Positions 274 through 50,452 are shown, counted from the stretch's first letter. The stretch: DNA of 52,483 bases from Anaerolineales bacterium (GCA_036011785.1 DASCOB010000217.1:1-52483), one strand, 5' to 3'. Made by a program: numbers and translations. The notes: generated by a model from the letters alone, not told the origin.

Positions 274-2169
274 ATGGTGTCTTCCAATTTACGCCGCATA
301 ATGGCAGGTGCGTGGGCGCCCGCGCTCGCGGTAATGGTTGTCGCCGTTTGCTACCTCTCGACCCTGATGTGGCGGATTAACGGCAGCGACAGCGTCTACG
401 CCGATGACGTGGGCGAGTATCAGGTCGCGCTGCCGCTGTGGGGCACGGTGCACCCCACCGGCACGCCGCTGTATATGCTGCTGGGTTCGCCTTTTGTGAG
501 CGCGTTGCGCGGGGTGGGGTTGGCTCCGTCGGCGGGGGCATCGCTCTTCTCGCTGCTTTGGGCAGCCGCAGGGGTAGCCCTTCTGGCTGCCATTCTGATC
601 AGGCTGGCTGTGCCGCCGGTGCTGAGCGCGCTGGCCGCGCTCGCGATCGGACTGACCCGTTCAATCTGGATACATGGATCCATCGCCGAGGTTTACAGCC
701 TGTGGATGTTCATCACGCTGCTGGCGCTGCTGCTGGCGCTAAAGCTCGATGCGCGCTGGTCGGACGGCGGCGGGTGGCTGCTAGCCCTGCTCGCCGGGCT
801 GGGCGTGGCGCACCATCGCCTGTTTGCGCCTCTACTGCTTGTGCTGGCGCTGTGGCTGTGGAGGCGCGCGCCGCGCGGAAAAGCACTCTGGCGCTGGGGA
901 GTGTTCGCCGCGCCGGCCTTCGCGGGCGGATTTTTTCCATATGCCGATATGGTGTTGCGCGCTCGGCTGGGGGCGGAATGGATTTACGGCGATCCGGGCT
1001 CCTGGGCGGGATTCTGGTCGCTTTTCTGGGCGCGCGAGTACAGCGGCCTGCAGGGCCTGCCGGGTGGCCTGCGGGAACTGGCGGATGCGCTCGCTCGCAG
1101 CGGCAGTGTTTTGTGGGGGGAGTTGCGCTGGCCAGGGTTGCTCTGGGCGCTGCTGGGTGTTCTCCTCGCGATGCGCGCGCCGCTGCGCCGGCCGGCAACA
1201 CTCTTGCTGGGCACGGCGCTAGCTTACTTGCTGTTTGCCATTGCGCTTCCGCGCGCAAACTTTTTTGAGATGGCTGCCATGCCGGTGGCGGCCGCCGTGC
1301 TGCTGACGGCGACGCTCGGCATCGGCAGCGTCGCCGATTCAGCCCTCGGTCTGCGCGTGGCCGCCGCCGCAGCGCTGGCTGTGGTGACTGGCTGGTATGT
1401 GCTTAATAATCGGCCCGCGGTGCTGCAGATTACACGTGACCCGGCCGGAGTGCAGGCAATCGCTCAACTCGATGATCTCAATGCTCCCGCCGCGGCCACT
1501 ATCATGTCGCCATGGGGTCGGCGTCATTTCGCGCTGGCGTACTCCACGCGCGTGGAGCGTCGTTTTCCCGGCTGGCGCGTGGCGCATCATGCCGAGGACT
1601 GGCGCGAGATTTTGCAGCGAGAATCCACGGTTTACACCAACGCCGATTCGATATACGGATTCGGGTCGGAATGGTGGCGCGAAACTCTGCGCGCAGAGCC
1701 ATACTTTAGCGCCGCCGGCCCGGGCTGGGTGGCCATCAGCCTGAGCCCGCTGCCGATGGATGCCGAGCGACCGGCTCACCTCGAGCTTGCGTCCGGGATG
1801 CACCTCAAGGGTTGGACGTTTAAGGAACAGGACGGCGCTTTTAAGGCGACCCTATGCTGGCAAGCGGTGCAATCCCCGATGGCCGATTACAGCACCTTTG
1901 TGCATCTGGGCAGCGTGGCGAAGATTGTGCTGCCAGAGCAACTAGTGGCATCTTCCGACCACTCCACCCCGGTAGACGGGTGGCGTCCGAGCGGCGGCTG
2001 GCAGCGCGAAGAGGTGGTCTGCGATGCGCATTCGATTGCGCTTCCGCCCCAAGCTGGGTTCAGCCATGTGATCGCGGGGATGTACACGCGCACAGAGTCA
2101 GGAGGTTTTGAGCAGCTGGGGGCGTTGCGCTGGGCGCGCGCGGGGCGCCGATGGAGCGTGGTGCGGTGA
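274..2169 (+). CDS. DUF2723/TMEM260-like polytopic GT-C membrane glycosyltransferase with one C-terminal LYW/PPG module
   Basis: 631-aa ORF. N-terminal motif DDVGEYQVALPLWGTVHPTGTPLYMLLG matches the D.GE...HPPGYPLY signature of DUF2723. Many hydrophobic helices follow. The soluble C-terminal tail starts near 1798 and carries the shared module. Confidence 0.75.
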   Translation: MVSSNLRRIMAGAWAPALAVMVVAVCYLSTLMWRINGSDSVYADDVGEYQVALPLWGTVHPTGTPLYMLLGSPFVSALRGVGLAPSAGASLFSLLWAAAGVALLAAILIRLAVPPVLSALAALAIGLTRSIWIHGSIAEVYSLWMFITLLALLLALKLDARWSDGGGWLLALLAGLGVAHHRLFAPLLLVLALWLWRRAPRGKALWRWGVFAAPAFAGGFFPYADMVLRARLGAEWIYGDPGSWAGFWSLFWAREYSGLQGLPGGLRELADALARSGSVLWGELRWPGLLWALLGVLLAMRAPLRRPATLLLGTALAYLLFAIALPRANFFEMAAMPVAAAVLLTATLGIGSVADSALGLRVAAAAALAVVTGWYVLNNRPAVLQITRDPAGVQAIAQLDDLNAPAAATIMSPWGRRHFALAYSTRVERRFPGWRVAHHAEDWREILQRESTVYTNADSIYGFGSEWWRETLRAEPYFSAAGPGWVAISLSPLPMDAERPAHLELASGMHLKGWTFKEQDGAFKATLCWQAVQSPMADYSTFVHLGSVAKIVLPEQLVASSDHSTPVDGWRPSGGWQREEVVCDAHSIALPPQAGFSHVIAGMYTRTESGGFEQLGALRWARAGRRWSVVR

Positions 2170-4742
2170 TGGCTCTTTCCACAGCCCTAGCTTTGTTTGG
2201 TTTGGCGGTGTTCGCGGCCTGGCCTCTACTGCGTGCCGGCGCTACCACGGTCATTGACGGGACAAACCACTTTTATCGGTTGGCCGAACTCCACTGGGCG
2301 CTGCAGAACGGAAGCATCTATCCACGTTGGTTGCCGGATTTCGCCTACGGGTTTGGAGTTCCGACCTTCAATTTCTACCCGCCGTTGAGTTACTGGGCCG
2401 CAGAGGTGTGGGCGCTGCTGGGGATGCCCCTTTCCCGGGCGCTCGAGATAGGCTATTTCTCTGCGCTGCTCACGCTAGTTGTTGGAGCATACCTATGGGC
2501 GCGCGCGGTGTTCCACTCAGAGGCGGCGGCCCTGGCCTCGGCCGCCTCGTATGGCCTGTGCCCGTATCTATTTGTAAACTTACTGCGGCGAGGTGCGTAC
2601 CCCGAGCTTTGGGGTATGGCGCTGGCGCCGTGGGTGCTGCTGGCGGTTTTACGGCTGGCACGGAATACATGCGCCCGATCAATGCTTTTCCTGGCGGCTA
2701 CGGTTGCCATCCAGATCTTGGCTCATCCGCTCTCCGCTTTCATGCTCATTCCGTTCCTTCCCTTGTATCTGGTCGGCTTGATTCAAGTTGATTGGCGGCG
2801 GTGGTTATGGGCAGGTGGCGCGCTGGTACTTGCAGCAGGGTTGGCGGCTATTTATTGGTTTCCGGCGCTGGCTGAAGAACGCTTTGTGCAGATGTCGCGT
2901 ACTGTGAGCCACCCGCTGCTGGATTTCCACAACCATTTTCTCTCCTCGAGCGCATTGCTAGCCTCGCCGTACGTGCTCGATTCTTTGCGAATATTCATGC
3001 CCATGCAGCCCAGCCTTAGTTGGGTCGTGGTCGTGTTAGCCCTTGTGGGGTGGTGGGCGCAACGACGGCGCCTATCCATCCTTGTAATTGGGGTGATTGC
3101 GTTAATTATGGTTTTTCTAGTCACGCCCGCGTCAATGGTGGTGTGGGAATCGGTGCCTAAGATGCCCATGGCCCAGTTCCCTTGGCGTTTTGTGGGGCCG
3201 CTGAGTCTGCTGGCCGCGATGTTGGCTGGATGCGGCGTGGCTGCACTCAGACAACGGTGGGTCTTACCACTGTTTGTGCTGGGGGTCGCGCTGTTTTCGA
3301 TGGGTTGGATGTTTGGCTATCCAGCTGCCAGCCTGGAGGGGAAAACGCATGCGGACATTCCAGTGTTTGAACGGAAAACCGGCCTAGTTGGTTCAACCGT
3401 GTTCGGTGAGTTCCTGACCGTGTGGATGCCCGAGCTGCTCTCGTATGGCGTATTCGAGGATAGCTACGCAGCCCGCGAGCTGCCGCCACCTCGCCTGGAC
3501 GTGGCGTCGCTGCCCCCCGGCGTGCAGGTGCTGCGCGAGAGGCCGCGGTTCGATTCCACTTCGATCGAGTACGAGACGAATGCACCTTTCGATGCCCGCC
3601 TGCACTGGTTGATCTTTCCCGATGTCCGGGCTGAAGTGGACGGCGTGTCTTTGCGGGTCGGGCCGGAGCCGGGTACCGGCCTGGTGCTTGTTTCTGGGCT
3701 GCCTGCCGGGCGGCACACGTTCACCGTCGGGCAGGTGCTCTCCGGTCCGCAGCGCCTCGGCACGGCGATCAGCTTGGCAAGCCTGGTGATACTGGTCGGC
3801 GGCTGGCTGTTGACACGGCGCATCGTGCGGGGGCGGCGCGCCACACCTTCACGATGGTCGGGCATTTCGGTCGCGCTGGTTGCTGTTGGCTTGATTGTGA
3901 TGCGGGTGACCTGGCTGGACATACGACCGTCGCCTTTCTATCGCTCCAGCTTCGACGGAAAGTACGTGGAGGGAGCGGAGCCGCGTGCAGTCGATTTTGG
4001 CGCGAAGATGCGGCTCGTCGGTCTGCGTGTGAATGAGCGCAAGAACGAGGTTCGGCTCTACTGGCGACCGCTGCAGAAGCTGAGAGTTGATTACAGCACG
4101 GCCTTGTATTTGGAAGATGCAGAGAGGTATCGCTATGGCCAAAAGGACAGCCAGCACCCCGGGGAGGTGCCCACCAGCCGCTGGGAGGTGCAGCAGTACG
4201 CGGACGACGTGCACGCGTTGCATCCCTTGCCAGGGACGCCCCCCGGGGAGTACCGTCTGGTGACCGGCGTTTATTCGGTGGATGGCGGCTTGGATGTGCT
4301 TACGCCGCAGGGGCCAGCCGGCCACTATGTGGACGTCGGCGCGTTCACGGTGCCGCGCGCCGGTCGCCCACCCAGCATCGCGGAGCTGGCGCCGCAGGTG
4401 GTGAGCGAGAGGTCTTTTGGAGATTTCACCTTGCTGGGTTACGACATTGACCGGCCGGCGGTCGAGCCAGGAACGCCGTTCTATGTGACGCTTTACTGGC
4501 AGGCAACCCGGGCGCTTCCCGCCGGCACTCTTTTGGAGTTGGTCTTGCGGCGGGGAGATGATGTGCTGGCGAGCGTGACCGCACCCCTGACCACCCGCTC
4601 TGTGGGTTGGGTGGTGGACGAGGTGGGGCGGGGCCCGCAGCGCGTTCCCGTGCCGGCTGAGACGCCGCCCGGCAAAGGCATTATCCTGTTGCGCCTGGGT
4701 GGGCGGGAGATGGTTCTGGGCGAGATTGATGTGGCGGATTGA
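2169..4742 (+). CDS. PTPS-related (PF10131-type) large membrane protein, putative GT-C glycosyltransferase, with two C-terminal LYW/PPG modules
   Basis: Motifs YPRWLPDFAYGFGVPTFNFYPPLSYW and FPWRFVGPL. Clear paralog of the 6831-9956 protein. The ORF track starts at 2151, but the ATG at 2169 overlaps the upstream stop (TGATG), so a coupled start is preferred. Confidence 0.7.
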   Translation: MALSTALALFGLAVFAAWPLLRAGATTVIDGTNHFYRLAELHWALQNGSIYPRWLPDFAYGFGVPTFNFYPPLSYWAAEVWALLGMPLSRALEIGYFSALLTLVVGAYLWARAVFHSEAAALASAASYGLCPYLFVNLLRRGAYPELWGMALAPWVLLAVLRLARNTCARSMLFLAATVAIQILAHPLSAFMLIPFLPLYLVGLIQVDWRRWLWAGGALVLAAGLAAIYWFPALAEERFVQMSRTVSHPLLDFHNHFLSSSALLASPYVLDSLRIFMPMQPSLSWVVVVLALVGWWAQRRRLSILVIGVIALIMVFLVTPASMVVWESVPKMPMAQFPWRFVGPLSLLAAMLAGCGVAALRQRWVLPLFVLGVALFSMGWMFGYPAASLEGKTHADIPVFERKTGLVGSTVFGEFLTVWMPELLSYGVFEDSYAARELPPPRLDVASLPPGVQVLRERPRFDSTSIEYETNAPFDARLHWLIFPDVRAEVDGVSLRVGPEPGTGLVLVSGLPAGRHTFTVGQVLSGPQRLGTAISLASLVILVGGWLLTRRIVRGRRATPSRWSGISVALVAVGLIVMRVTWLDIRPSPFYRSSFDGKYVEGAEPRAVDFGAKMRLVGLRVNERKNEVRLYWRPLQKLRVDYSTALYLEDAERYRYGQKDSQHPGEVPTSRWEVQQYADDVHALHPLPGTPPGEYRLVTGVYSVDGGLDVLTPQGPAGHYVDVGAFTVPRAGRPPSIAELAPQVVSERSFGDFTLLGYDIDRPAVEPGTPFYVTLYWQATRALPAGTLLELVLRRGDDVLASVTAPLTTRSVGWVVDEVGRGPQRVPVPAETPPGKGIILLRLGGREMVLGEIDVAD

Positions 4743-4743
4743 T

Positions 4744-6813
4744 TCAGTCCGTTGTCACCACCCCCACCGGCACTGCGTCTCTTCCGTCCGGCGTGGCATA
4801 ACGCGTGCCGTTATCCAAACGATATAGCCCCAGAGAGACGCGATAATCGCCGGGCGCGGCGTTGGGGGGAAGGCGCAACGTGTGCCGCTGCGCAAATCGT
4901 AAGCCCGGGCGCCACAGTTCGGGCGGAATGTCCAAGCCATCATCTCCAACCAGGAACTCGCCCGCCGGACCAAACAGGTGCGCAGAAATGCTGATAGGCG
5001 GCGGCAGGAGGGCATCCACCTGCCATAGGGCGCTAATGTTCATTGTTTCGCCTGCGCGCGTCACTGTCGCCCCCAGCAGTGTCAGGCCCTCTCCCAGCGT
5101 GGCCGCCGGGAGAGGGTCAACGGAGGGCATGACCCGGGCTCCGACGAGCCGATAGGGCAGCACCATATCTTGCGCCGAACCTCTCTCCACTCCGGGAAGG
5201 TTTTCGATGGTCACTACGGCTCCGTCCGGGATCATGGCAATCAAGTCGCTTTCACGGGCTGGCACAATGATCAGGTAGTTGTCCGGGAGTGGGGGAATGG
5301 GAGCATCTTTGTGCAGTACTAAGAGCAACTCTTCATTTGTGGCAGTGGGCGGCAGCGGTGCAGCGGGTTGGAGCAGCCGCAGTGCGGGCGTGGCGTCGGG
5401 CACGAGTGGAACCAGGAATCTCACAGCCGGATTCTCGCTCCAGACAGAGGCTTCCATCCACGCCTGCCGTTTCGGTGCGGGGTAACTCGAGCTGGCGAGC
5501 ACGCCCTTGTCCTGCCAGCCCACATTCAGGAAACGGTTGACTGCCGTGGCGACCACGGTGATAGGGTGATCAAAAGATGTCGCAATCTGGGGCCGTGCCA
5601 GGTGCCGCTCGAGCCAGAAATCGCGCGTCGTGATGAATGCCGAGCCGAGCAGCATTGCACCGACAACCAGCAGTGCTAGCAGCGGTTGTACCAGAGTGGT
5701 CAGGCGACGATAAATCCAATCTATCCCTATCGCGGGCCAGATGAAAAGCACTGGCAATATCGTGCTGGCGCGGCGAAAATGTGGCGCGGAATGAGAAAAG
5801 ATCGTCACCAGCAGCCCAGCACCTACCCATATACTCAGCAATAGCATTTTCGTTCGCCACCGCCTGCGTAGCGAAAGGCCCAGCGAAATCAGGAATGGAA
5901 CAGCCATGATTAGGTCGAAGACTGGCCGGCCAGCAATGTTCTGGCGCCAATTCCAGTCCCCTTTAGATTTCATCACGAACATTCGCAACACAATCAGTGT
6001 TTGCTTTCCTGTTGTAGTCATGACCGTATTGAAGTCATCTCCGGCACTGAAGACAGAAACATCTTCGCTGCGTTCGATCACTGCCGTCCAGTTGCCCGAT
6101 GCGTAGAGGAGGAGGGGTGTAGCCGCGAGAAGAAACGCGGCCACAAAGAACAGTGCACCTGGCCACAAGCGCCGGGCAGCGCCGCCCATTGCCAGCAGCA
6201 GCGCCCACAGTGGAAATATCAGCGGGACCACACGCGCCGCCTCGTATGTGTATAAAGCCAGGCCAATCAGCAGGCCGGACAGGGTCCAACACCACCATCG
6301 GCGGCTTTGCCACCCTCTGACGCCCAGCCATAAGCCAAATGACAATAAGAGCGCTGACATGGCTGGATTGTCGCCTAGGCGTCCGAGAAGGATCATCCAA
6401 ACGGAAAACGCGCCGGTAAACGCGGCCAGGAGGCCAATTCGCCGGCTGAACAGGCTCCGCGCGACCAGGTAAACGCCGAGAACAGTGCCGCAGCTGGCAA
6501 GGATCGCCGGTAGGCGAATTGCTGCCGGGGTTCTCCCCAGGATGGAGACGGAATGCGCAACCGCGTAGGTGAATAGTGCCGCCCGGCTGTTTTCACCCGC
6601 AAAATAGATCGGTCTTGCGCCACGGATGATCTCAAGCGCGTCCAACCCCTCGACTGCTTCGTCGTAATACAGCCCGGCAGGCAGCGAGGCGAAATCAACA
6701 AAGCGCAGCAAGGTAGCCAGTGACAATGTCAAGCCGATCGCGAGTACCGCTGCGCGGGTAGCGCCCGGGTTACCTCGCGCTGACATTGGCGGGCGAAGGT
6801 GGTTTGACTTCAT
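4744..6813 (-). CDS. ArnT/PMT-like (GT39/GT83-type) GT-C membrane glycosyltransferase with one C-terminal LYW/PPG-type module
   Basis: 689-aa ORF. The N-terminal motif LRFVDFASLPAGLYYDEAVEGLDALEI contains the DE acidic motif after TM1 that is typical of polyprenyl-phosphate-sugar-dependent GT-C enzymes. About 12 hydrophobic segments, then a soluble C-terminal tail. Confidence 0.75.
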   Translation of the reverse strand: MKSNHLRPPMSARGNPGATRAAVLAIGLTLSLATLLRFVDFASLPAGLYYDEAVEGLDALEIIRGARPIYFAGENSRAALFTYAVAHSVSILGRTPAAIRLPAILASCGTVLGVYLVARSLFSRRIGLLAAFTGAFSVWMILLGRLGDNPAMSALLLSFGLWLGVRGWQSRRWWCWTLSGLLIGLALYTYEAARVVPLIFPLWALLLAMGGAARRLWPGALFFVAAFLLAATPLLLYASGNWTAVIERSEDVSVFSAGDDFNTVMTTTGKQTLIVLRMFVMKSKGDWNWRQNIAGRPVFDLIMAVPFLISLGLSLRRRWRTKMLLLSIWVGAGLLVTIFSHSAPHFRRASTILPVLFIWPAIGIDWIYRRLTTLVQPLLALLVVGAMLLGSAFITTRDFWLERHLARPQIATSFDHPITVVATAVNRFLNVGWQDKGVLASSSYPAPKRQAWMEASVWSENPAVRFLVPLVPDATPALRLLQPAAPLPPTATNEELLLVLHKDAPIPPLPDNYLIIVPARESDLIAMIPDGAVVTIENLPGVERGSAQDMVLPYRLVGARVMPSVDPLPAATLGEGLTLLGATVTRAGETMNISALWQVDALLPPPISISAHLFGPAGEFLVGDDGLDIPPELWRPGLRFAQRHTLRLPPNAAPGDYRVSLGLYRLDNGTRYATPDGRDAVPVGVVTTD

Positions 6814-6830
6814 TTCTTGCCTACAGATTG

Positions 6831-9800
6831 CTAGGGAATCACGGTGAGCAGGCCGAGCAGCGCGCGGCTATCGGTGTGTTCGCCTGCGCCCGTGATTGGA
6901 AGCCGCTCGCCGGTCACTCGGTCTACAAGGCCGGCGTGCAGGCGATATGCGCCCGGTTGCGCGTCGACGGGGATAGTAAACGCATGGGGGTCGTCCACAT
7001 ATTCTCCCGCCACCCAGCCAGCAGAAGGGCGCGTCCAATTCAGTGGAACGCCATCATGTTGGGTGACCAGTTCTCCGGCTAAACTTTCCAGATGCACGAA
7101 GACGCTCACGTCTTCGGTGGGCGTGGCCAAGGCGTGCCAAAGGAGGCGGATTTCTAGCACTTCACCTGGATGCGCCTGTGGCTGGCTCCAATCATAGCCG
7201 CTGAGAAGGATGTCGTTGCCGAATGCGAGCCGTACTGGATGGATGACCTTCGGTGGCTCAAAGATGCGCTCGGGGGCGGTGACGCGCAGCTTCACCAAGT
7301 ATGTGATAGCGCTTCCCTCGGAACTCGCTCGTACCGTCCAGCTGTGCTCTCCGTCCGGCAGGTCGGCCGGCAGGCGCAGCAAGTGTTGACCGCGCCAGAC
7401 GTCGCCCGTGCGCCACTGACTGGTCGGGAAGCCGGGCGTTGGGTCGAGTCTGAGCGCGAAATCTGTTCCGCCCAATGCGAGGGTGATGTGCTCATCGGAG
7501 CTAGGCGCAGTTTGCGCGTGAAAGAAGAGAGTGACAGTCATCAAACCGCCGGGGCCGGCCTGCCGGCGGTCAGCGCTTCCGCCGAGCAGAGTAATCTCCG
7601 GGGTCAGGCGGGTTCCTGTTTCGATCTGCATCTCCAATGCGGCCGCCGATGCCGGCGTTGGTGGGCGCACAACTTTCACCGTCCCTAGGTCAATGCGGTC
7701 TGTCTGCGGCACGCCTTCGGGTGTGACGGCTTTTGATGTCTCCAGAGTGGCGTAGTCGAAGAAGGTCCCATACAGTCGGTATTCGCCCGGCGGTGTTCCG
7801 GGCAGGAGCTGGTATTGGCGCGCGAACTGGGCGTACTCTTCCACTGGCCAGTACTGTGTGCGCGGCGGCTCGCGATGCCAGCGCGGCGGCACGGTCTCGT
7901 GCGGGTTGATGTTCCAGATAAGGTTGTCAACACTCTGCAGCCGGAAGAGTGGCCGGTAATCGCGCTGGGGCGTGCTGCGCGGGGTCAGGTACAGGACTAC
8001 CTCGAACGTGCCGCCGCTCGGCACCGGATCGGGCCTGACGCTGTAAGCGAGCGTGTCCAGGCCGTTGTCGAGCGAGACCGCCAGCGGAGTGCCGAGCGAA
8101 GCCGCCTCGATCGAGGTGCGCTGAAACGCGTTGTCGCTGCGGTCAATCAGCAGCAGCTTAGCCGCGAGCAGCGCGAGCGGCAACGCCAACAGCAGAGCAG
8201 GAGCGCGCGCGTGGCGCCACGCGCACGCTGCCGGACGCGGCGAGGCAGCAAGCAGCGCGGCGATAGTTGCCAGCAACGCAGCCACTGCAATACTGGATGC
8301 CAGCGCGCGCAACGGGGTGACGCCAAAATAAACGCGCAATTCGTGTTCGCCGGCCGGGACTTCGAACTTTATCAGGCCCGTGCCCGCCGCCACCTCGAGC
8401 GGGCGTGGCTGTCCATCGACGCTGACGCGCCAGCCGAGGTAGTAGAACATCTGATAGGCAGCGCTGAAGGCCTCGGGGGTGCGCAGGGTTGCGCGGAAGT
8501 CCAACGGGTCCGGGTCGAGGATATCGAGCGTTGCCCCGGCGGGAAGCCCGTGCAGCCGCTCGGGCGTGTCGCCCGCCTGAAGCGCCTCGGCCAGCGTGTT
8601 TTCCTGCGGCAAATAACGCACGGTCTTTGGAAGAAACTCGCCTTTGGCAGAGGTACCCACGGTGAAAGTGTTGTACTCGTATTCCAGCATGGTGCCTATA
8701 GTGGCCTCTGCGAACTCGGCGCAGTAGCGCGGATACCACCAGGATAAGTGACCGAGCGTGGCTACGGTGGCGATGACTGCGGCCGCAACCCAGGAGCGAT
8801 TCGAACTTGCGAGCCAGCGCACCGCCGCCCCGGCCAGAGTGGCAGCGCACAGCGTGGCGACGCCAAGCATGCGCCACGGGAACTGCACGAATGGCAGCAG
8901 CGGGAGCGCATCCCAGAGCGTGCGCGTTAGTGGGAGGGTGAGCGCGCCGTAAAGCAGCAGGGCGCCAAAGAAGAACAGCGGACGCGCCGCGCCACGTTTC
9001 GGCCGGCGCGTGTCCGCGCGAGCGGGTCGCAGCGTCACAGTGGCCGTCCCCAGCAACGCCATCCCGGCGGCGATGGCCCCGAGCGCCTTTGGTGGCGACG
9101 GGTTAATTAAGCGCGGCTGCGTGGCTACCGGTGGAGCCAGTAATTCGGCGCTGGTCAGGAAATTGGTGTAATAGGTGAAAACCGGCGGGACGAGCAACTG
9201 CTCGGTCTGCACCAGGCCGCGTTCTGCCAGCGCCGGCATCCAGAAATGGGCGCTGAGCGCCAGCCCTGCCAACATGATGGCAGCAGCGCGCGCCAGCAGC
9301 TGCCGGCGTCTTTGTTCGCCGGAGATAAACGCTGCGTATCCCGCAATGAGTGGCGTGGCGAGGAGTGCTGAAGCGTTGTGGGTGTAAATCAGGGCAGCAA
9401 AACACAGCGCCGCGAGCGCCCCCCAGCGCAGCGATTCGCGCCGCAGCGCCCGGTCCAGCGTCCACAATATCAGCGGCAGCCAGACCAGCGCCAGGGTCTC
9501 GGCGAGCGCGCCGCGAAAGAGTATATTGAAAGCCAGATACGGTGAGGTCTGGTACACGACTGCGGCGGCCAGCCCTGCCCACGGGCCCCACCAATCGCGC
9601 ACTAGCGCAAACACCGCCAGCCCGGCCAGCAGTATGCACAGCGCCAACGCGATGTGCAGCGCAAGCGGATAGATGAAACCCAGCGCGTGCAGCCCGGCGA
9701 GCATGTATGAACCCAGCGGGGCGTAAAAATTGTAGAGCGGATAGCCGAAGCCGTGCGCCATGTGTGGCGACCAGCGCGGAAACCAGTGACCCAGCTGGAT

Positions 9801-9956
9801 GGCGGCTTCAAGACCGAGGGCTTTGTGCATGTGGAAGACGCCGTCGTCAGAGCAGGTGGTGCGCGCCTGCAGCAGCGGCCAGATTGAAAACAAGCCAAAG
9901 AGCAGCGTGGTTACTTGCGGCAGGCTTCGCCGCGCCCGCCGCGCGGCTGCGCTCAT
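6831..9956 (-). CDS. PTPS-related (PF10131-type) giant membrane protein, putative GT-C glycosyltransferase, with three C-terminal LYW/PPG modules
   Basis: 1041-aa ORF. Motifs WFPRWSPHMAHGFGYPLYNFYAPLGSY, FPWRMLGV and YYLGWRVSVDG...VPAGEHELRVYF. Paralog of 2169-4742. Three tandem modules lie at about 8096-7668, 7613-7278 and 7232-6834. Confidence 0.7.
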   Translation of the reverse strand: MSAAARRARRSLPQVTTLLFGLFSIWPLLQARTTCSDDGVFHMHKALGLEAAIQLGHWFPRWSPHMAHGFGYPLYNFYAPLGSYMLAGLHALGFIYPLALHIALALCILLAGLAVFALVRDWWGPWAGLAAAVVYQTSPYLAFNILFRGALAETLALVWLPLILWTLDRALRRESLRWGALAALCFAALIYTHNASALLATPLIAGYAAFISGEQRRRQLLARAAAIMLAGLALSAHFWMPALAERGLVQTEQLLVPPVFTYYTNFLTSAELLAPPVATQPRLINPSPPKALGAIAAGMALLGTATVTLRPARADTRRPKRGAARPLFFFGALLLYGALTLPLTRTLWDALPLLPFVQFPWRMLGVATLCAATLAGAAVRWLASSNRSWVAAAVIATVATLGHLSWWYPRYCAEFAEATIGTMLEYEYNTFTVGTSAKGEFLPKTVRYLPQENTLAEALQAGDTPERLHGLPAGATLDILDPDPLDFRATLRTPEAFSAAYQMFYYLGWRVSVDGQPRPLEVAAGTGLIKFEVPAGEHELRVYFGVTPLRALASSIAVAALLATIAALLAASPRPAACAWRHARAPALLLALPLALLAAKLLLIDRSDNAFQRTSIEAASLGTPLAVSLDNGLDTLAYSVRPDPVPSGGTFEVVLYLTPRSTPQRDYRPLFRLQSVDNLIWNINPHETVPPRWHREPPRTQYWPVEEYAQFARQYQLLPGTPPGEYRLYGTFFDYATLETSKAVTPEGVPQTDRIDLGTVKVVRPPTPASAAALEMQIETGTRLTPEITLLGGSADRRQAGPGGLMTVTLFFHAQTAPSSDEHITLALGGTDFALRLDPTPGFPTSQWRTGDVWRGQHLLRLPADLPDGEHSWTVRASSEGSAITYLVKLRVTAPERIFEPPKVIHPVRLAFGNDILLSGYDWSQPQAHPGEVLEIRLLWHALATPTEDVSVFVHLESLAGELVTQHDGVPLNWTRPSAGWVAGEYVDDPHAFTIPVDAQPGAYRLHAGLVDRVTGERLPITGAGEHTDSRALLGLLTVIP

Positions 9957-9971
9957 GGTGGGGATTGGCGG

Positions 9972-11144
9972 TCAGGCCGCATCGTGCGCGTGAGTGTCGC
10001 TGCGGTCTTTGCTTTCGCGGACCTCGGTGGAGGATGTGTCGAGCCGAAAGTCGTCCTCTGGCAGTTCGTCGAACAGGTCTGCGAAAGCAGCTGGAATGGA
10101 GAGGTCGCTCGCTGTGCGGAAGCGGCCCTGCCAGCGGCGCCCGGCCACCAGGAAGCGGCAGCCCGCTGCTTGGGTGGTCGCCAGCGCGGCGTGCATCTTG
10201 GATTTATCATCGTCGTAATAGCGTGATTGCAGCAAGCGCAGCGCGGTGTCGTAGCCGACCACGAAAACCGAATCTCCAAAACTGGCCGCTTTCTGAACGA
10301 AAAGCGGCCGGCGGGTGAGCACCAGCTGCCATGGCCGACGGAACTGGCGCAGTCGCCGGATAATCTCAGCGTGACTGAGCGCGCCTTTGTCGGCGTTCTG
10401 CACCGAGAGTTCGAATACCACGCGGCGCTGTAAGCGGGCAGCGGCGGCGCGGGCCAGCCGTATGTGCCCAGCGTGCAGCGGGTTGAAAGCTCCGGAGAGC
10501 ACCGCCATGCCACCTAGTGACCGGTCAGCAGCCATGTCGCCATCGGGGCGTATCGTCACTGTATTAACTTTGCCCGCCAGTAAGCTGTCGAGCAGGTCTC
10601 TGCACGCCTCGGAGCTCGTCTTCAGCGCTTCCGTTTCTCCCAGCTGCAGCTCGAGGGCGGGTTCCAGCCCGCATGCTCGCGCCAGCCCTTGCAGCACGAT
10701 TCTGCTGACTAGGACTTCCTCTCCATGGCGCGCACGCGCGCCCTTTTGCAGCGTGATTGCGTATTGGCTGCAGCGCGTGCGCTCGATTACGCACACGCGG
10801 CATCCGTGCTTGCCGCGTTTGGCGTAATCGGTGGCGATGGTGGCGGTGCAGCCGATGCCCACCACCGGCGCGTCGCCCGCGCTCAGGCGCAGCCCGCGCT
10901 GGTAGGCATGACCGGCCATCGACCGAGCCGTCTTCGCGGTGACAAAGCGCCGTGGCTGCGTGCCAAGAAGATCGATGGTGGAGAGCGCGGCGTAACGGTC
11001 AACCGCCTCTAGCACGGTGCGGGATGAGCCGCCCTGGCTGTGCAGCCAGAAGAGCGCTAAGCTGCCCGCTCCGGCAAACTCCAGCACTGCCTGCTGCGGA
11101 GTGGCGTGAATCTCTGCGACCAGTTGCTCTATTTCAGGATGCAT
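9972..11144 (-). CDS. Two-domain protein: CinA-C/PncC-like N-terminal domain fused to a NadD/NMNAT-like cytidylyltransferase-fold nucleotidyltransferase
   Basis: C-terminal half has GAFNPLHAGH (the HxGH motif) and DTSSTEVRE (ISST-type motif). N-terminal half has VLEFAGAGSLALFWL..GGSSRTVLEA, which resembles the CinA C-terminal domain but lacks its ESCTGG motif. The ATG at 11144 is preferred over the GTG at 11147. Confidence 0.6.
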   Translation of the reverse strand: MHPEIEQLVAEIHATPQQAVLEFAGAGSLALFWLHSQGGSSRTVLEAVDRYAALSTIDLLGTQPRRFVTAKTARSMAGHAYQRGLRLSAGDAPVVGIGCTATIATDYAKRGKHGCRVCVIERTRCSQYAITLQKGARARHGEEVLVSRIVLQGLARACGLEPALELQLGETEALKTSSEACRDLLDSLLAGKVNTVTIRPDGDMAADRSLGGMAVLSGAFNPLHAGHIRLARAAAARLQRRVVFELSVQNADKGALSHAEIIRRLRQFRRPWQLVLTRRPLFVQKAASFGDSVFVVGYDTALRLLQSRYYDDDKSKMHAALATTQAAGCRFLVAGRRWQGRFRTASDLSIPAAFADLFDELPEDDFRLDTSSTEVRESKDRSDTHAHDAA

Positions 11145-11401
11145 CACGATTCCGTATTATACGGCGCAATTACAGCTCTGCCGGTACTGCGCACCGTAGG
11201 TGGCCACAAAGCCAAATTCGTCCGCAGCGCATGGCGTGCTGCGGGCCGCTGAAGTACAATTAACCACAGGAGAAAATGCATTCTCGCAAGTGATTCTGTG
11301 GCTAGAACGCCGCCCTTCCGGATGGCGCAATTACTGTGCTCAACTGCCCTGCCGGAGAGATCTACTAAACGGTGTCACTCGGTGGGCCGCAGAGGAAAAC
11401 T

Positions 11402-14086
11402 ATGGAAATTGGCCTAGTAAAACGGATTGACATAGACGGCCAGATGCGCGATGCGTATTTGGATTATGCCATGAGCGTGATCGTGGCGCGCGCGCTCCCG
11501 GATGTGCGCGATGGCCTCAAGCCCGTTCACCGCCGCATACTCTACGCTATGCACGACATGGGCCTGCGCTCCAATGGCCCGTTCAAGAAATCGGCGCGCA
11601 TTGTTGGTGAGGTGCTGGGCAAATACCACCCGCACGGAGACCAAGCTGTTTACGACGCCATGGTGCGTATGGCGCAGGATTTTTCCATGCGCTACCTTCT
11701 CGTCAGCGGACAAGGAAACTTCGGTTCGGTGGATGGCGACGCGCCCGCGGCCATGCGCTACACCGAGGCCAAGATGGCCGCCACCGCCGAGGAGATGCTG
11801 CTTGACATAGACCAAGACACGGTGGATTGGAGCGCCAATTTTGATGACTCGCTGCAAGAACCGCTGGTGCTGCCCGCCCGGCTACCCAACCTACTGCTCA
11901 ACGGCGCCGCCGGAATCGCGGTGGGAATGTCCACCAACATCCCGCCACACAACCTGGGCGAACTGACCGCCGCAATCCGTTATCTGATTGATCGCGATGA
12001 CATCCTTGCTGTCATTGAGGCGCAGGGAGACAAAGCGCCAACCAAATTGGCCAAGAAGTTCGGCCTGACGAAAACGCAGGCCGAGGCCATCATGCGTATT
12101 ATCTTGCACGGCGAAGACGGCCTTGGGAGCCTTGAGGCCGCCGCTGAGGAGAGCGGTCTCGATTTGAGCGAGGAGGCTGGGGATGCCTCGGTGGCCGAAC
12201 TGATGACATTCGTCAAAGGGCCAGACTTCCCCACCGGCGGAGTCATTGTGGGCAGCGATGGCATTTTGGCAGCCTACAGCACCGGCAAGGGTCGCGTGGT
12301 AATGCGCGGGCTGGCACAGATAGAGGAACCGTCCCCGGCGCGACATCAAATCGTCATAACGCAGATTCCTTACCAGTTGAACAAAACCGTGCTAATTGAG
12401 CGCATTGCCCAACTAGCGCGCAGTGGGCGTCTGAAAATGATCGCCGACATGCGCGACGAATCGGACCGGTGTGGCATGCGCATTGTCATCGACCTGAAAC
12501 GCGCGGCGCACCCGCAGGCGGTGCTCAACCAGCTCTACAAATACACCAGCCTGCAGAGCACCTTCGGCGTGCAGCTGCTCGCGCTGGTGGGCGGCGAACC
12601 ACGACTGCTTTCCCTACGGCGGGCGCTGCAACTGTATATCGGCCATCGCCAGGAAATCATCACGCGCCGATCGGAGTTTGAGCTGCGTAAGGCGCTAGAG
12701 CGTGCGCACGTGCTGGAGGGATTGCTCATCGCAATCTCTAACATCGACGCTGTTATCAAGACCATTCGCAAGGCCAAGGATGCTGATGTCGCCCGGGGCG
12801 CGCTGATGAAGCAATTTGACCTGACTGAGGTGCAGGCGCGCGCTATCCTCGACCTGCAACTTCGCCGCCTGGCCGCGCTGGAACGCCTGCAGATTGAGCA
12901 GGAGTATGAGCAGAAGCAGAAACGTATCGAAGAGCTGCAGGACCTGCTGGCGCACCCCAAGAAAATCCTCGGGTTGATAAAAGACGACCTTGAGGTAACG
13001 GCGAAAAAGTACGGTGACGAACGCAAAACGCGTATAGCCTACGATGCCAGCGACGAACTGAGCATCGAAGACATGGTTCCTGATGAGGCCATACTGGTCA
13101 CGATCACCACGCGCGGTTTCATCAAGCGCATGCCGCCGCGCGAGTTCCGGGCGCAGCGTCGTGGCGGCAAGGGCGTCATCGGTCAGGACATGCGCACCGA
13201 GGACGAAATCGATCATCTGTTCTCGACGCGCTCGTTGAAGCCCATTTTGTTTTTCTCAGACAGAGGGAAGGTGTATTCGCAGAAGGCCTATCGCATCCCG
13301 GCCGCGCGCCGTACCGACAAAGGAGTCTCGCTGCACAATATCCTCCCATTGGAAGCCACGGAAAGGATCACAGCTGCCGTGCCGGTTCCCAGCTTCGCTG
13401 AGGCGGAATTCTGCACCATGGTGACGCGCAACGGGAAAATCAAGCGCGTGGCGCTCAGCCAGTTCGAATCGGTGCGCCCCTCCGGGCTGATTGCAATCGG
13501 CCTGGCACGTGATGATGAGCTCGGCTGGGTGCACTTGACGGTCGACAAACAACACATAATCATAATCACCGAGCAGGGGCAGGCGCTGCGTTTCAACAGT
13601 AGTCTGGTGCGCAGCATGGGCCGGCCGGCAGCCGGCGTGAAGGCGATAAACTTGCGCAAAGGCGACCGCATCAGCGGCATGGTGACAGTTACGGAAGACG
13701 GAGAGCTGCTGGTGGTGACCGCAAACGGCTACGGCAAGCGCACGGCCATGGCAGCGTACAATCCCAAAGGCCGCGCCACTATGGGCGTGGCCACCTTTTC
13801 GCGCAAGGCCGTCGCTAAGCTCACGGGGCCTATTGTGGCCGTGCGGAGTGTGCAACCCGACGACCAGATAACCATCATCTCTGTCAACGGGCAGGCTATC
13901 CGCACCACTGTTTCCGATATCCGTCTGCTGGGTCGCGCCACCAAGGGCACGCGCCTTATGAACCTGAAGCCGGGCGATACGGTCGCCTCGGTGGCGCGCC
14001 TTTTGATGGCCGACCTGCCCGATGACGGCGGTGACCAACCTGCGCCCGATGCCGCCAAACTGATAACTGAACCAGCAACCGAGTGA
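11402..14086 (+). CDS. gyrA: DNA gyrase subunit A
   Basis: Motifs [22 protein letters not shown] and AMRYTE (catalytic Tyr region), GPDFPTGG, and repeated C-terminal beta-pinwheel blades. The ATG at 11402 is preceded by AGAGGA. The ORF track starts at 11372. Confidence 0.97.
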
Positions 14087-14090
14087 GGGC

Positions 14091-15449
14091 GTGAACGAAC
14101 TACTCCTTTCCGAGCCGTTGACCACCTATCTGCCGGAAGCCGACCCGGCATTGCTGGCGGAGGTGATGGTCGCGTTTGCCAACAGCGATGGCGGCGCAAT
14201 TGTGCTCGGCGTGGACGAAGCCGGTCGGCTAACTGATGCCCCGATTCACGGGGAGGAACTGGATGGTGCTCTGCTTGCCGCCGAGCAGCGCTGCCGGCCG
14301 GTGATTCCGACCGGATGGGAGCAATTCGAAGCTGCAGAGGGGTCGGCATTCGTGGTGCGCGTGGCGCGCAGCCCCGAGCTGCACGCGCTGGATGATGGCC
14401 GTGTTCTGATTCGTGCCGGTGCCGAGAATCGGCCGCTGACTGGCGAACAGATCCGGATACTGGCCGCCACCAAATCCACCGGCGATTTCGAAGCTGAGGC
14501 GGTGATCGGAGCCACTCGCGCGGATCTGGACGAAGAAGTCGTTGCCGAATATTTGCAAAAACGCGAGTCGCGCTGGCGTCGACCGCTCTCCGGTATGGCC
14601 GACGAGGTGCTGATGGAAATCGGGGCGCTTACGGCGCAGGGGATGCCCACAGTGGCCGGGTTGTTATTGTTCGGGGCCGCGCCGCAGGCGTTATTGCCGC
14701 AGAGCGGGCTTGTCTTCGTTAAGTTTGTTGGTACAGATCCGCGCGGTTCTGATGGACAGGCGGGTTATGGCCGCCGCGAGGAAATCAACGGCCCGCTGGC
14801 GCGCATTATTGAAAATGCATGGCAGCTTGTGCACGAAGAAATGGCGGTCGGTGCAGTGGTGGAGGGGTTAGAGCGGGAGGAAAGGTTGGAATACCCGTCT
14901 TTCGCCGTGCGCGAGGCGCTGGTTAACGCGGTCTGTCATCGGGACTATCGTTTGCAGGGCCGCCGCACAGAGATGCGCATGTTTTCCGATCGCCTGGAGG
15001 TCATCAGTCCGGGCGGGCTGCCCGGCTTCATCACAGTGGACAACATCGTGGAGGAGCATTTTTCACGCAACCCACGCCTAGTGGCGGGAGTGTTCCAGTG
15101 GGGCTATATCGAGGAGCTTGGGCTGGGCGTGGACAGAATGATTGAGACGATGGTGCAGGAAGGCCATCCGCCACCGCATTTCAAAGCGCGGCCGCATGCT
15201 TTTACGGTGACATTGCAGAACAGCCGTGACCGCAAGGTTGCGCCCAGATGGGAAAGTAACATGAACGAGCGCCAGATGCGCGCGCTCACGCACATCCGTG
15301 AGAGCGGCAGCATCGCGAATCGTGAATATCGGCAGCTGTGCCCCGACGTCACCCCGGAGACACTACGCCTGGACCTGGCTGACCTAGTGAGCAAAGGCGT
15401 GCTGCTAAAAATCGGCGCAAAAAAAGGCACCTATTACATCCTGAAATAG
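14091..15449 (+). CDS. AlbA_2 (Schlafen-like divergent AAA) + HATPase_c_4 + C-terminal winged-HTH protein. This class is often mislabelled RecG-like or transcriptional regulator.
   Basis: N-terminal AEVMVAFANSDGGAIVLGVDEAG fits AlbA_2. REALVNAVCHRDYRLQG...EVISPGGLPG fits HATPase_c_4. The tail RQMRALTHIRESGSIANREYRQL...LVSKGVLLKIGAKKGTYY fits a wHTH. The start lies 4 nt after the gyrA stop. Confidence 0.75.
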   Translation: MNELLLSEPLTTYLPEADPALLAEVMVAFANSDGGAIVLGVDEAGRLTDAPIHGEELDGALLAAEQRCRPVIPTGWEQFEAAEGSAFVVRVARSPELHALDDGRVLIRAGAENRPLTGEQIRILAATKSTGDFEAEAVIGATRADLDEEVVAEYLQKRESRWRRPLSGMADEVLMEIGALTAQGMPTVAGLLLFGAAPQALLPQSGLVFVKFVGTDPRGSDGQAGYGRREEINGPLARIIENAWQLVHEEMAVGAVVEGLEREERLEYPSFAVREALVNAVCHRDYRLQGRRTEMRMFSDRLEVISPGGLPGFITVDNIVEEHFSRNPRLVAGVFQWGYIEELGLGVDRMIETMVQEGHPPPHFKARPHAFTVTLQNSRDRKVAPRWESNMNERQMRALTHIRESGSIANREYRQLCPDVTPETLRLDLADLVSKGVLLKIGAKKGTYYILK

Positions 15450-30122: not shown

Positions 30123-30153
30123 AGTTCTTTCCCACCCGTTGCCGGCGGGAGAC

Positions 30154-31593
30154 CTAATTGACTGTGATTGGAATCGTGTCGGAGAGGTAGTACCAGTTGG
30201 CAGCCGGCGGGGTTGTTGTTCCGCAATCAGTGGATGTACCCAGACAAATGACCATACGCAAGTCATACGTGCCGGCGGCCGAGATTTCAATGTGGTCGCG
30301 CCAAACGTATTCGGTGCCAGCTGCAACCTTGTCGGCGTCTCCGTCCCCGTTGAAAAAGCGGAAGATGTGTGGGTTAGCGTACACGCCCCACGCGCCGAAC
30401 TTCTGGTCGCTGCCGCCCGGGTTGTGTATTTTCAGATTCACCCAGATAGATTCATTCACTGCGTAGCTGGCCGCGCAGGCGCTGCCGGATGTGCATATTT
30501 TCTCAGCCGAAAAGTAGGTGCCCGTTATCGGGCTGCCATCCGGGGTGACTGGAGAAAGCCTGGATTCGCTGATAGTTACTGGAATGGCCTCTGATAGGAT
30601 GAACCAGTTGGTGCCCGGCGCTTTCGAGGCCAAGCAATTAGCGGCGTCATCCAGGCAAATACCCATCTGCAGATGGTGTACGCCGGCGTTGAGAATGCTG
30701 ACAGAATCTCTCCAACTATATTCAGTGTTTGCGCCGATTTTGTCGGCTGCGCGGTCGCCGTTGAAAACATAGAGAAAGTTCGGGTACAGGTTGGTGTGCA
30801 CGCCCCATGCGCCGAAACTAACATCGGAGCTGCTCGAATTCGCAATGCGCATGTTGACATAGAACGGATCGCCGACAAGGAAGCGGGGCTCGGTGATACC
30901 CGGAACGAATTGGGTCTCTACGCTGAATGTTTTTCCGGAAATCGAGCTGCTGGAGGCTGTGGTCAGAGCGGCTGATGTTGCTGTTGGATCTGCAGCCATT
31001 GTGGCGGTCGTCGCTGGAGTGGCACTCGCTTCCGAGATGGGGGTGGCCGGCGCTTCCACGATTGGGATGTCGGCCGCGTTCGCGCGCAGAGATGACCATA
31101 GCGCCGAAACCCAGACTCGATTGCGGGTGCCATACGCAATTTGATACCATTGCCCGTCCGCAGATTGTCCGGTGACCGGCGCGATATACCCGGTCGGCTC
31201 GCTGCCCAGAATCGCGTATTCTGTGCCCGGACCGGCGCGCAAGTACACGCCGTCCGTGAGTTCCAGGGTGCTGTCCCCGAGGGGCAAATGGTCTGCTGAC
31301 GGAGCGGGGGTGTGATCCGCGATCTGGACGGCTGCAGGTGTGGGAACCGGCGTTTCGGCGTCAACCACACTGGCGGCAGCCGCGGTCGGTTCCGCGGTGG
31401 CGCTGGCGGCAACGTCGGCTGTGGCTGTCGGTGTCGGTGCTGGTAAAGCGGCTGCGGCGGGTTGTGGCGCCGCTGAATTAAATTCGTTTAGCGCGTATCT
31501 GATTGCCGTAACCCCACCCGCCGCGAGGCCTACAATCAGGGCTGTAACGAGCGCTGTCTTTGGGGGAATTTCTCTCAGCTGCCTAATCGTCAT
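30154..31593 (-). CDS. Membrane-anchored secreted protein: Ala/Thr/Pro linker, SH3b-like domain, and two tandem copies of an unrecognised Cys-containing domain of about 125-135 aa
   Basis: TM helix ALVTALIVGLAAGGVTAI. SH3b-like segment GVYLRAGPGTEYAILG...GQWYQIAYG.RNRVWV. The tandem repeats share FGAWGV..N....F..FNGD..ADK..A.TEY.WRD...I..AG...L.M.ICL......C.......NW..LS..IP.T. Confidence 0.65.
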   Translation of the reverse strand: MTIRQLREIPPKTALVTALIVGLAAGGVTAIRYALNEFNSAAPQPAAAALPAPTPTATADVAASATAEPTAAAASVVDAETPVPTPAAVQIADHTPAPSADHLPLGDSTLELTDGVYLRAGPGTEYAILGSEPTGYIAPVTGQSADGQWYQIAYGTRNRVWVSALWSSLRANAADIPIVEAPATPISEASATPATTATMAADPTATSAALTTASSSSISGKTFSVETQFVPGITEPRFLVGDPFYVNMRIANSSSSDVSFGAWGVHTNLYPNFLYVFNGDRAADKIGANTEYSWRDSVSILNAGVHHLQMGICLDDAANCLASKAPGTNWFILSEAIPVTISESRLSPVTPDGSPITGTYFSAEKICTSGSACAASYAVNESIWVNLKIHNPGGSDQKFGAWGVYANPHIFRFFNGDGDADKVAAGTEYVWRDHIEISAAGTYDLRMVICLGTSTDCGTTTPPAANWYYLSDTIPITVN

Positions 31594-47499: not shown

Positions 47500-47504
47500 G
47501 CACG

Positions 47505-48653: not shown

Positions 48654-48672
48654 TTCAGTAGGTTGCGGCGAT

Positions 48673-49662
48673 TTAGAAATCTCGCTCTACCACATAATCA
48701 GCAATGGCGTGGAGTGTGGGCAGGTGTTCGCCCGCCGTGGCGGCGGAAAGGGCGGATTTCGCGCTGGTCACATAATCGCGGGCCTCGGTGCGCGCCACCT
48801 CGATTGAGTCGGAGGCGCGGATGGATTGCAGCAGGCGCTCGCGCACCTTGCGGCCGCTCTGGTGTCCGTTTAGCAGTGCGGCCACGTCCGGGTCGGTGGG
48901 ATTGGATTCGATGTAGTGCAGCGCCGGCAGCGTGAGCAGACCTTGCTGCAGGTCGCTGCCCACCGGCTTACCAATGCGGTCCGCGCTGCCGATGAAATCG
49001 AGCACATCATCCACAATCTGGAACGCCATGCCGGTTTCGCGCCCGTAGCGGCGCATGCCCCTGATAGCGGCCTCGCTGGCGCCGCCGAGCACCGCGCCGG
49101 CCTCGGCGGCCAGCGCGAACATCGATGCAGTTTTGGCGTGGATGCGCTGGAAGTAAGCCTCGCGGCTGAGGGTGGGCTCATCGGCGAACTTCTGTCGGAT
49201 TTCCCCGTTGACGATGACCATCAGCGTCTCCGCGAAAAGGTTCATCACGCGCACGCTCTCGGTCTGCGCTGCGAAACTGGCGGCACGAGCAAAAAGGTAA
49301 TCGCCGGTGAGCACGGTGGCGTCCGGCGACCATTTGGCATTGAGGGTGGGGATGCCGCGGCGCAGCAGTGCTCCATCGATGAGGTCATCATGCACAAGTG
49401 TAGCCGTGTGCAGCATTTCCACCGCTGCTGCCAGCGATACGGCGTTATCGCAATCTGCGGCGAACAATCTGGCGCTGAGCAGCGCCACGGCAGGGCGCAC
49501 GCGCTTTCCGCCGGAGTCTAGCAAGTGCTTGGTGGCTGCTGTCAGGGCATGGTGCTGCCCGCTGAGCGATTCGCGCAGCCGCGCTTCCATCGCCGTCAGT
49601 TGCCCCTTGACCGGCGCGAGAAGCTCAGCATTAGTACTCACGGTGGTGCTCTCTAAATGCAT
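48673..49662 (-). CDS. trans-Polyprenyl diphosphate synthase (hepta-/octaprenyl-type)
   Basis: FARM motif LVHDDLIDG and SARM motif QIVDDVLDF. The start at MHLEST (49662) immediately follows the tatD stop. The ORF track extends to 49716. Confidence 0.8.
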   Translation of the reverse strand: MHLESTTVSTNAELLAPVKGQLTAMEARLRESLSGQHHALTAATKHLLDSGGKRVRPAVALLSARLFAADCDNAVSLAAAVEMLHTATLVHDDLIDGALLRRGIPTLNAKWSPDATVLTGDYLFARAASFAAQTESVRVMNLFAETLMVIVNGEIRQKFADEPTLSREAYFQRIHAKTASMFALAAEAGAVLGGASEAAIRGMRRYGRETGMAFQIVDDVLDFIGSADRIGKPVGSDLQQGLLTLPALHYIESNPTDPDVAALLNGHQSGRKVRERLLQSIRASDSIEVARTEARDYVTSAKSALSAATAGEHLPTLHAIADYVVERDF

Positions 49663-49663
49663 C

Positions 49664-50446: not shown

Positions 50447-50452
50447 ACCAGA

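Follow-up and report, generated by a model that had tools for sequence, protein, structure and literature searches.

A predicted beta-sandwich module at the C-terminus of several GT-C membrane protein families, apparently centred on the Chloroflexota

Why should large membrane proteins from different N-terminal families end in the same soluble tail, and what might such a tail do? The question is raised by a 52,483-nucleotide stretch of DNA from an Anaerolineales bacterium (GCA_036011785.1 DASCOB010000217.1:1-52483), hereafter the window, in which an earlier note, made from the sequence alone, had picked out by eye a recurrent C-terminal module on four adjacent GT-C membrane proteins (locus 1). 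We report that sequence comparison shows one homologous domain of ~130 residues, shared by all copies, and that it forms position-specific arrays at the extreme end of GT-C proteins. Nine copies are present in the whole window, seven of them in locus 1 and two in a fifth carrier, E:

Carrier A, 274-2169, plus strand: 631 residues, TMEM260-like/DUF2723 core (PF11028, 9.9e-11), one C-terminal module
Module A1, 1768-2148, plus strand: A residues 499-625, terminal-type, divergent; hhalign 98.7% to the terminal-position profile
Carrier B, 2151-4742, plus strand: 863 residues, PTPS_related core (PF10131, 1e-7), soluble domain and transmembrane hairpin, two modules
Module B1, 3978-4358, plus strand: B residues 610-736, first-position type; hhalign 99.8% to the position-1 profile
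Module B2, 4404-4739, plus strand: B residues 752-863, degenerate middle-type; hhalign 98.6% to the position-2 profile
Carrier C, 4744-6813, minus strand: 689 residues, PMT_2 core (PF13231, 3.9e-13), D51-E52 motif in the first outer loop, one module
Module C1, 4750-5112, minus strand: C residues 568-688, divergent; beta strands at 571-688 in the AlphaFold2 model
Carrier D, 6831-9956, minus strand: 1041 residues, PTPS_related core (PF10131, 9.3e-14; PMT_2, 2.2e-8), soluble domain and transmembrane hairpin, three modules
Module D1, 7665-8090, minus strand: D residues 623-764, first-position type; hhalign 99.2%
Module D2, 7281-7625, minus strand: D residues 778-892, middle-position type; hhalign 99.2%
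Module D3, 6834-7241, minus strand: D residues 906-1041, terminal type; retains the greater part of the polar/aromatic set conserved in such copies, with S in place of T at position 73
Carrier E, 45160-47499, minus strand: 779 residues, divergent PMT_2/DUF2142-like GT-C protein found by the six-frame scan described below, two modules
Module E1, 45604-45993, minus strand: E residues 503-632
Module E2, 45178-45585, minus strand: E residues 639-774, the copy used for structure modelling

The relatedness of these copies can be followed from direct comparison to profiles built entirely outside the window. In pairwise BLASTP, D3 acts as a hub that matches A1 (9e-12), C1 (4e-10), B2 (8e-8), D1 (2e-7) and D2 (2e-5). 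A profile made only from 429 database copies, with E-values scaled to 1.84e9 sequences, recovers all nine: A1 at 3e-9, B1 at 5e-21, B2 at 1.5e-8, C1 at 6e-11, D1 at 2e-15, D2 at 4e-10, D3 at 2e-34, E1 at 2e-28 and E2 at 3e-39. Against external positional profiles, hhalign assigns every window copy a probability of 97.4-100%. Furthermore, when a hidden Markov model (HMM) of seven copies was run over the window in six frames, two further and very canonical copies emerged at 45160-47499 on the minus strand, with E-values of 5e-19 (E1) and 1e-23; both had been left out of that model, so that their recovery is an independent confirmation of the repeat. The consensus of the external copies, ...LRLLGYDL..RPGETLRLTLYWQAL...DYTVFLHLVD..G..WAQRDSLP.GG.YPTSRWEPGEVVRDRHELPVPAGTPPGEYRLEVGLYD..., agrees with the motif that had been drawn up by eye.

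The window is 58-66% GC and the motifs are rich in P, G and L, so the original alignment might have been a chance or compositional artefact of Pro/Gly-rich tails. We regard this explanation as refuted, with next to no probability left to it: the external profile reaches E-values down to 1e-39 at the scale of a billion sequences, two copies outside model building were recovered, the fold prediction is confident (see below), and the collapse of the by-eye alignment, named in the earlier note as a refuting outcome, did not occur in BLASTP, profile or hhalign comparisons. Most of that first description has survived. All seven copies in locus 1 match the external profile (1.5e-8 to 2e-34), including the two in 274-2169 and 4744-6813 that were thought liable to drop out, and the four carriers and their N-terminal families were correctly given. 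What has changed is the start of B1, placed at 4003, one base out of frame with a translation that ran into stops, where the true envelope is 3978-4358; the list of carriers, to which the fifth and its two copies are added; and the copy number, which is 1-3 per protein in locus 1 as proposed and reaches four in the databases. Recent gene conversion among the paralogues in the window was rejected, as the copies there are only 23-36% identical.

The earlier note could not match the module to a named domain, and our searches bear this out. The nine copies gave only noise against Pfam-A at E<=10 (best MalQ_N, 0.028), and for the consensus of the 429 copies all Pfam-A scores fell below cut-off (ML 0.025, NPCBM_assoc 0.053, MG2 0.098, DUF4832 0.13), the weak similarities centring on the PPGxYxL hairpin. 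The consensus had no match in NCBIfam, and neither copies nor consensus matched the Pfam carbohydrate-binding module (CBM) families. Two database members match DUF4832 at 3.6e-5. Profile and consensus searches of PDB sequences returned a marginal match (E 0.007, with the profile) to residues 392-468 of a Micromonospora sialidase, which we take to be the Ig-like linker domain of that enzyme, and otherwise noise. The C-terminal 110-430 residues of A-D have no Pfam assignment, and an NCBIfam scan of the whole proteins A, B, C, D and E yielded weak noise, outside the module only. By these searches the module family is unnamed within Pfam and NCBIfam, even at a Pfam E-value of 10. The E-set families NPCBM_assoc (NEW3), ML, MG2 and DUF4832 bear it a weak likeness, with scores below cut-off and none spanning the whole module, and, unlike the module, none of them is known as a GT-C tail. 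Membership of these four families, or of the Wzt or Emb/AftD families, was rejected because there was no sequence match above cut-off. The public names of homologues cover the core only (“glycosyltransferase family 39 protein”, “DUF2723 domain-containing protein”, “hypothetical protein”, “ArnT-like glycosyltransferase”), and no description of the module tail was found in a full-text literature search.

Structure prediction points to an Ig-like/E-set beta-sandwich, and does so with confidence. The AlphaFold2 model of E2, from an alignment of 13 sequences, has a predicted local distance difference test score of 91.5 and a predicted TM-score (pTM) of 0.84, and consists of eight strands in a sandwich with one short helix; the same strand pattern is found at residues 571-688 of the full-length model of C. 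A Foldseek search of the PDB with the E2 model gave 61 matches at E<=0.001, the best 50 of which are mostly small beta-sandwich domains. Heading the list are the carbohydrate-binding domains of Wzt, from A. aeolicus (6o14 and 8dky; E 2e-5 to 5e-5, TM-score 0.61-0.62), together with 2r5o, the C-terminal domain of Wzt (TM-score 0.59). They are followed by sandwiches of NPC2/ML, RhoGDI, GH3 C-terminal and Spo0M type, at TM-scores of 0.39-0.54; generic E-set sandwiches reach 0.44-0.54. The Wzt superpositions have 12-13% identity and a root-mean-square deviation (rmsd) of 4-7 A, and no Wzt-type Pfam match was seen for copies or consensus at E<=10; the predicted likeness is therefore one of fold, and homology to Wzt is not established. 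It would nonetheless make a sugar-binding role plausible. The Wzt domain is likewise a C-terminal beta-sandwich appended to an envelope-glycan machine; it differs in being cytoplasmic and in following an ABC ATPase, whereas the module follows a GT-C core and probably lies outside the membrane.

A second comparison, with Emb/AftD-type enzymes, had been suggested in the earlier note. In the mycobacterial GT-C enzymes EmbC/EmbB and AftD, beta-sandwich modules outside the cytoplasm reportedly bind the polymer that serves as acceptor. The architecture of the EmbC/EmbB and AftD CBMs is alike, namely an extracytoplasmic beta-sandwich C-terminal to a GT-C core, and the resemblance is architectural only: host phylum and core families differ, Emb and AftD are met only as whole-protein GT-C hits of the C model, and no Emb/AftD chain is among the best 50 of the 61 fold matches of the module itself. 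The analogy has gained some weight from Wzt as the best structural neighbour; a specific similarity to Emb/AftD was seen neither in these best fold matches nor in Pfam.

To what kind of protein is the module attached? The N-terminal Pfam assignments of A, B, C and D are all above curated cut-offs. E has no Pfam match of its own, and is counted as a GT-C protein because its homologue P0144 (phmmer 1e-87) matches PMT_2 at 1.3e-7. The full-length AlphaFold2 model of C (16-sequence alignment, pTM 0.79) matches AglB, STT3, PglB, ArnT, ALG9, Pmt4, AftD and Emb in Foldseek, and D51/E52 is nearly invariant among C-like proteins, so that Pfam matches, the homologue of E, the model of C and this motif all place the carriers among GT-C proteins. 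PMT_2, PMT, PTPS_related and STT3 are members of the Pfam GT-C clan CL0111 (PMC7801869), and TMEM260/DUF2723 has been described as sharing the GT-C fold (PMC10214176). The N-terminal families are therefore different, as first noted, but the cores are not unrelated.

The module is most likely extracytoplasmic, as had been proposed. For C, the AlphaFold2 helices, which we used because a crude hydropathy scan over-split them, combine with the positive-inside rule to give 11 transmembrane helices, an inside N-terminus and an outside C-terminus; the RR/RRWRTK loops would then be inside, and the D51-E52 loop and the entire tail (401-689) outside. In B and D a soluble domain of 145-200 residues and a transmembrane hairpin lie between the GT-C core and the modules. 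By hydropathy, the two helices of this hairpin are joined by a short K/R-rich loop, which suggests that the loop is cytoplasmic and the modules are on the same side as the soluble domain. Residues 505-544 of D match the C-terminal end of the YfhO model at 4.7e-5, below cut-off. In the TMEM260 family, which has 11 transmembrane helices, the C-terminal region is luminal, and a role in substrate recognition has been proposed for it (PMC10214176). The tetratricopeptide repeat (TPR) regions of TMEM260/TMTC and the periplasmic domains of ArnT, PglB, AglB and STT3 occupy the same place after the last transmembrane helix and apparently the same side of the membrane. Those tails, however, are TPR or mixed alpha/beta, whereas the module is a repeated small sandwich, in one to four position-specific copies, common to several GT-C families within one phylum.

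The family is very abundant. An exhaustive profile search of 1.84 billion representative proteins returned 28,966 at E<=1e-3, 19,762 at <=1e-10 and 4,860 at <=1e-30. The best 150 matches have two to four copies each, and in all of them the array is at the extreme C-terminus, with a median of 1 residue beyond the last copy; it always stands behind a polytopic N-terminal part. Among 50 matches with cores unlike those of the window, PMT_2 was found in 40, PMT in 17, TMEM260-like and STT3 in 3 each, and DUF2079 and DUF6056 in 1 each, and scans of single proteins bear out the presence of carriers with TMEM260-like, DUF2079 and PTPS_related cores. Extra beta-helix domains in some carriers are suggested by matches to NosD (4.6e-10) and to the Chlam_PMP repeat, each seen in one of 50 three-copy proteins.

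The family is also, apparently, centred on the Chloroflexota. A scan of one genome per GTDB species confirmed at least 584 stretches, and the best 80 are all Chloroflexota metagenome-assembled genomes (Anaerolineae, Caldilineae, Thermoflexales, Chloroflexia and Dehalococcoidia), in a ranking that used a terminal-type alignment and similarity to E2 and so favours relatives of the query. Four database clusters bear an organism name, in every case one from the Chloroflexota. Word-index homology searches found 5, 13 and 17 short metagenomic fragments; protein E is identical in two JGI metagenomes and one NCBI assembly, and the homologue nearest to D3 bears the label marine metagenome. The consensus had no tblastn match in PLSDB plasmids or GenBank phages.

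The copies within an array are not interchangeable. Average-linkage clustering was dominated by outliers, and nearest-neighbour and positional identity were used instead. For 144 three-copy proteins we asked which copy in any other protein is nearest to a given copy: it holds the same position in 132, 129 and 142 cases for positions 1, 2 and 3, and in 95, 103 and 142 cases when neighbours are limited to other core classes. The terminal copy is the most conserved (mean identity 0.425 vs 0.32 and 0.31), and keeps F48, H50, Q61, D63, P66, P72, T73, W76, E80, D84, Y106 and R113 at frequencies of 0.91-1.00; in the middle copy H50, Q61, D63, Y106 and R113 fall to 0.2-0.33. The window follows this order: the copies D1 to D3 agree in turn with positions 1, 2 and 3; in B, the first copy agrees with position 1 and the second, weakly, with position 2; and A1, E1 and E2 are terminal-like. 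The best identity to external copies of the same position is 0.46 for D1 (position 1) and 0.47 for D2 (position 2).

How did one array come to sit on several cores? The earlier suggestion of a mobile module stands in so far as the tail is found on several GT-C families; a freely shuffling single unit seems not to agree with the positional order of the nearest neighbours. The simplest reading of the sequences is that the array has been exchanged between neighbouring GT-C paralogues, and inheritance from a single ancestor seems less likely. Under the latter explanation, the tail would be ancestral to one Chloroflexota GT-C lineage whose cores later diverged beyond family recognition. In its favour, the carrier cores all fall within a single GT-C clan, the named matches all come from one phylum, and the positional specificity of the three-copy array is what an old feature inherited as a block should show. 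However, PMT, PMT_2, TMEM260-like, PTPS_related and DUF2079 have members far outside the Chloroflexota that lack the tail, TMEM260 for example carrying TPRs in its place (PMC10214176), so that the core families would predate it. Moreover, modules of different core classes are 30-45% identical and their cores are without phmmer similarity, except B with D, which favours recombination of the tail, probably as an array. We therefore hold an ancestral tail to be improbable.

The genes around the carriers point to glycan biosynthesis. In 77 related Chloroflexota loci, to which the following counts refer, carrier genes stand in tandem runs, 47 of the loci holding two to six within ~12 kb, and core classes are mixed in 28 of the 42 with at least two full-length carriers. 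Since such mixed runs are common, locus 1, whose four neighbouring carriers represent three families, is typical. Neighbours that are not carriers are enriched for GT2, GT4/GT1, module-less PMT_2, LPG_synthase_TM and Wzy_C. On a complete 3.9-Mb Chloroflexota chromosome (OZ244845.1, 2282871-2306039), two overlapping loci together contain about eight module-carrying GT-C genes, mostly C-like PMT_2, in ~23 kb. Within locus 1, the 3′ end of A and the start of B overlap by 19 nt (2151-2169), and the stops of B on the plus strand and C on the minus strand meet tail to tail with one base between them (4742-4744), which leaves no room for a terminator between the convergent units. Upstream of D, on the same strand and separated from it by 15 nt, is a 391-residue open reading frame (ORF) at 9972-11147, minus strand, whose N-terminal half has no assignment and whose C-terminal half resembles a cytidylyltransferase (PF01467, 1.3e-6); D and C may be transcribed together with this ORF.

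Carrier E lies in a second group of glycan genes (locus 2, 41520-51871, minus strand), whose same-strand members either overlap by 4 nt (ATGA) or are separated by very small gaps, in the manner of an operon. Its other members are:

50453-51871, minus strand: PGM/PMM
49664-50446, minus strand: TatD
48673-49716, minus strand: polyprenyl synthase
47505-48653, minus strand: GT4, adjoining carrier E
42938-45163, minus strand: polytopic protein F, 741 residues
41520-42941, minus strand: Wzy_C

The order polyprenyl synthase-GT4-E-F recurs in three metagenome contigs. Protein F has many transmembrane helices, a soluble stretch of ~260 residues and one final transmembrane helix, a layout like that of YfhO/PTPS; it has no module and no match in Pfam or NCBIfam, and could be a further, unclassified protein of GT-C-like type. 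Housekeeping genes make up the rest of the window (UvrA, QueG, RelA/SpoT and CTP synthase, with an ORF at 11372-14086 that is, from its sequence by eye, presumably GyrA). Directly after the latter, an ORF at 14091-15449 (plus strand) has Schlafen AlbA_2 and HATPase_c_4 domains. A 990-residue ORF at 27354-30326 (minus strand) has no Pfam match at 1e-4 and overlaps the end of a 479-residue SH3_3-domain ORF (30154-31593). Finally, an ORF at 40099-41535 (plus strand) has PG_binding_4 and Beta-lactamase2 domains; it is divergent from locus 2 at the Wzy_C end, and may encode an enzyme associated with the wall.

What, then, might the array do? We put at about an even chance the proposal that it is an extracytoplasmic acceptor-recognition array on enzymes that use lipid-linked sugars, in which the terminal copy binds the acceptor and the inner copies mainly provide spacing. 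In such a scheme the polytopic core would draw on a polyprenyl-phosphate sugar on the outer side of the membrane, and the C-terminal array of one to four sandwiches would recognise and hold the acceptor, an envelope glycan or glycoprotein. The putative binding site would be on the last copy, where strands beta4-beta5 and the PTSxWxxGE loop bear the near-invariant H, Q, D, T, W, E, D and R; the inner copies, having lost much of this polar set, would be mainly spacers. The Wzt-like fold and the Wzy_C/GT4/polyprenyl gene context speak for a glycan acceptor, the PMT/TMEM260-type cores for a protein. Several observations weigh against the scheme. The single-copy carriers A and C have partly degenerate sites, so that binding cannot be universal. 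The conserved residues may serve to stabilise the fold, and need not come together as one exposed patch. The Wzt match, at 12-13% identity, has a high rmsd, and unrelated sandwiches (NPC2, RhoGDI, GH3 C-domains) score nearly as well; since the Wzt domain is cytoplasmic, moreover, the resemblance cannot be one of like-for-like role. The outside location is itself deduced from topology, and the linker at 400-570 in the C model is of low confidence.

The main rival is that the sandwiches form a structural stalk or docking array, which would anchor or space the enzyme at the wall or S-layer, or assemble GT-C paralogues, with no direct recognition of the acceptor. Serial Ig-like sandwiches are typical spacers, many of the fold matches are non-binding sandwiches, and the middle copy is without the conserved polar set; tandem runs of up to six carriers per 12 kb would suit hetero-complexes, as would the mixing of core classes in 28 of 42 multi-carrier loci. 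On the other hand, a terminal H/Q/D/T/W/E/D/R set that is near-invariant across core families, on the most conserved copy, fits a shared ligand better, and the single modules of A and C would give almost no stalk length. We judge a purely structural role to be rather unlikely. It is also possible that the array recognises protein acceptors, not glycans, and presents envelope proteins, folded or unfolded (S-layer, sheath or archaellin-like), to O-mannosyltransferase-like cores, in parallel to the luminal TPR region of TMEM260. The commonest cores, PMT_2, PMT and TMEM260-like, have protein O-mannosyltransferases as their characterised members, and the luminal C-terminal domain of TMEM260 has been proposed to recruit protein substrates (PMC10214176). 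However, the closest fold is that of a sugar-binding domain, and the operon-like surroundings of E, with GT4, polyprenyl synthase and a gene like a Wzy_C polymerase/ligase, point to a glycan polymer. Tryptophan together with acidic and amide residues, as conserved here, is typical of sugar-binding sites. A strictly proteinaceous acceptor thus seems unlikely to us, a shade more so than a stalk. A stronger form of the acceptor-recognition scheme would make the module a new Chloroflexota-specific CBM family, its terminal copy binding one shared envelope polymer and the tandem paralogues acting as a battery that decorates this polymer; we offer it tentatively, as possible but on balance doubtful.

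It is already established that GT-C enzymes carry variable outer domains that select the acceptor, and in this respect the module extends known biology and overturns none of it. What is new is an unnamed, very abundant and apparently Chloroflexota-centred domain family with a position-specific array organisation. A domain present in ~29,000 representative protein clusters is nameless in Pfam and NCBIfam, which leaves the annotation of the carriers silent on one third of each protein; the family could be used directly as a Pfam or CBM entry and for a binding assay. The cell envelope is poorly understood in the Chloroflexota, a phylum abundant in oceans, soils, sediments and wastewater. The shared tail, the tandem runs of carriers and the conserved putative terminal site provide handles on what these bacteria build at their surface, and if the reading of a shared polymer is true, the tail would be a sequence marker for an uncharted envelope glycan pathway of the Chloroflexota.

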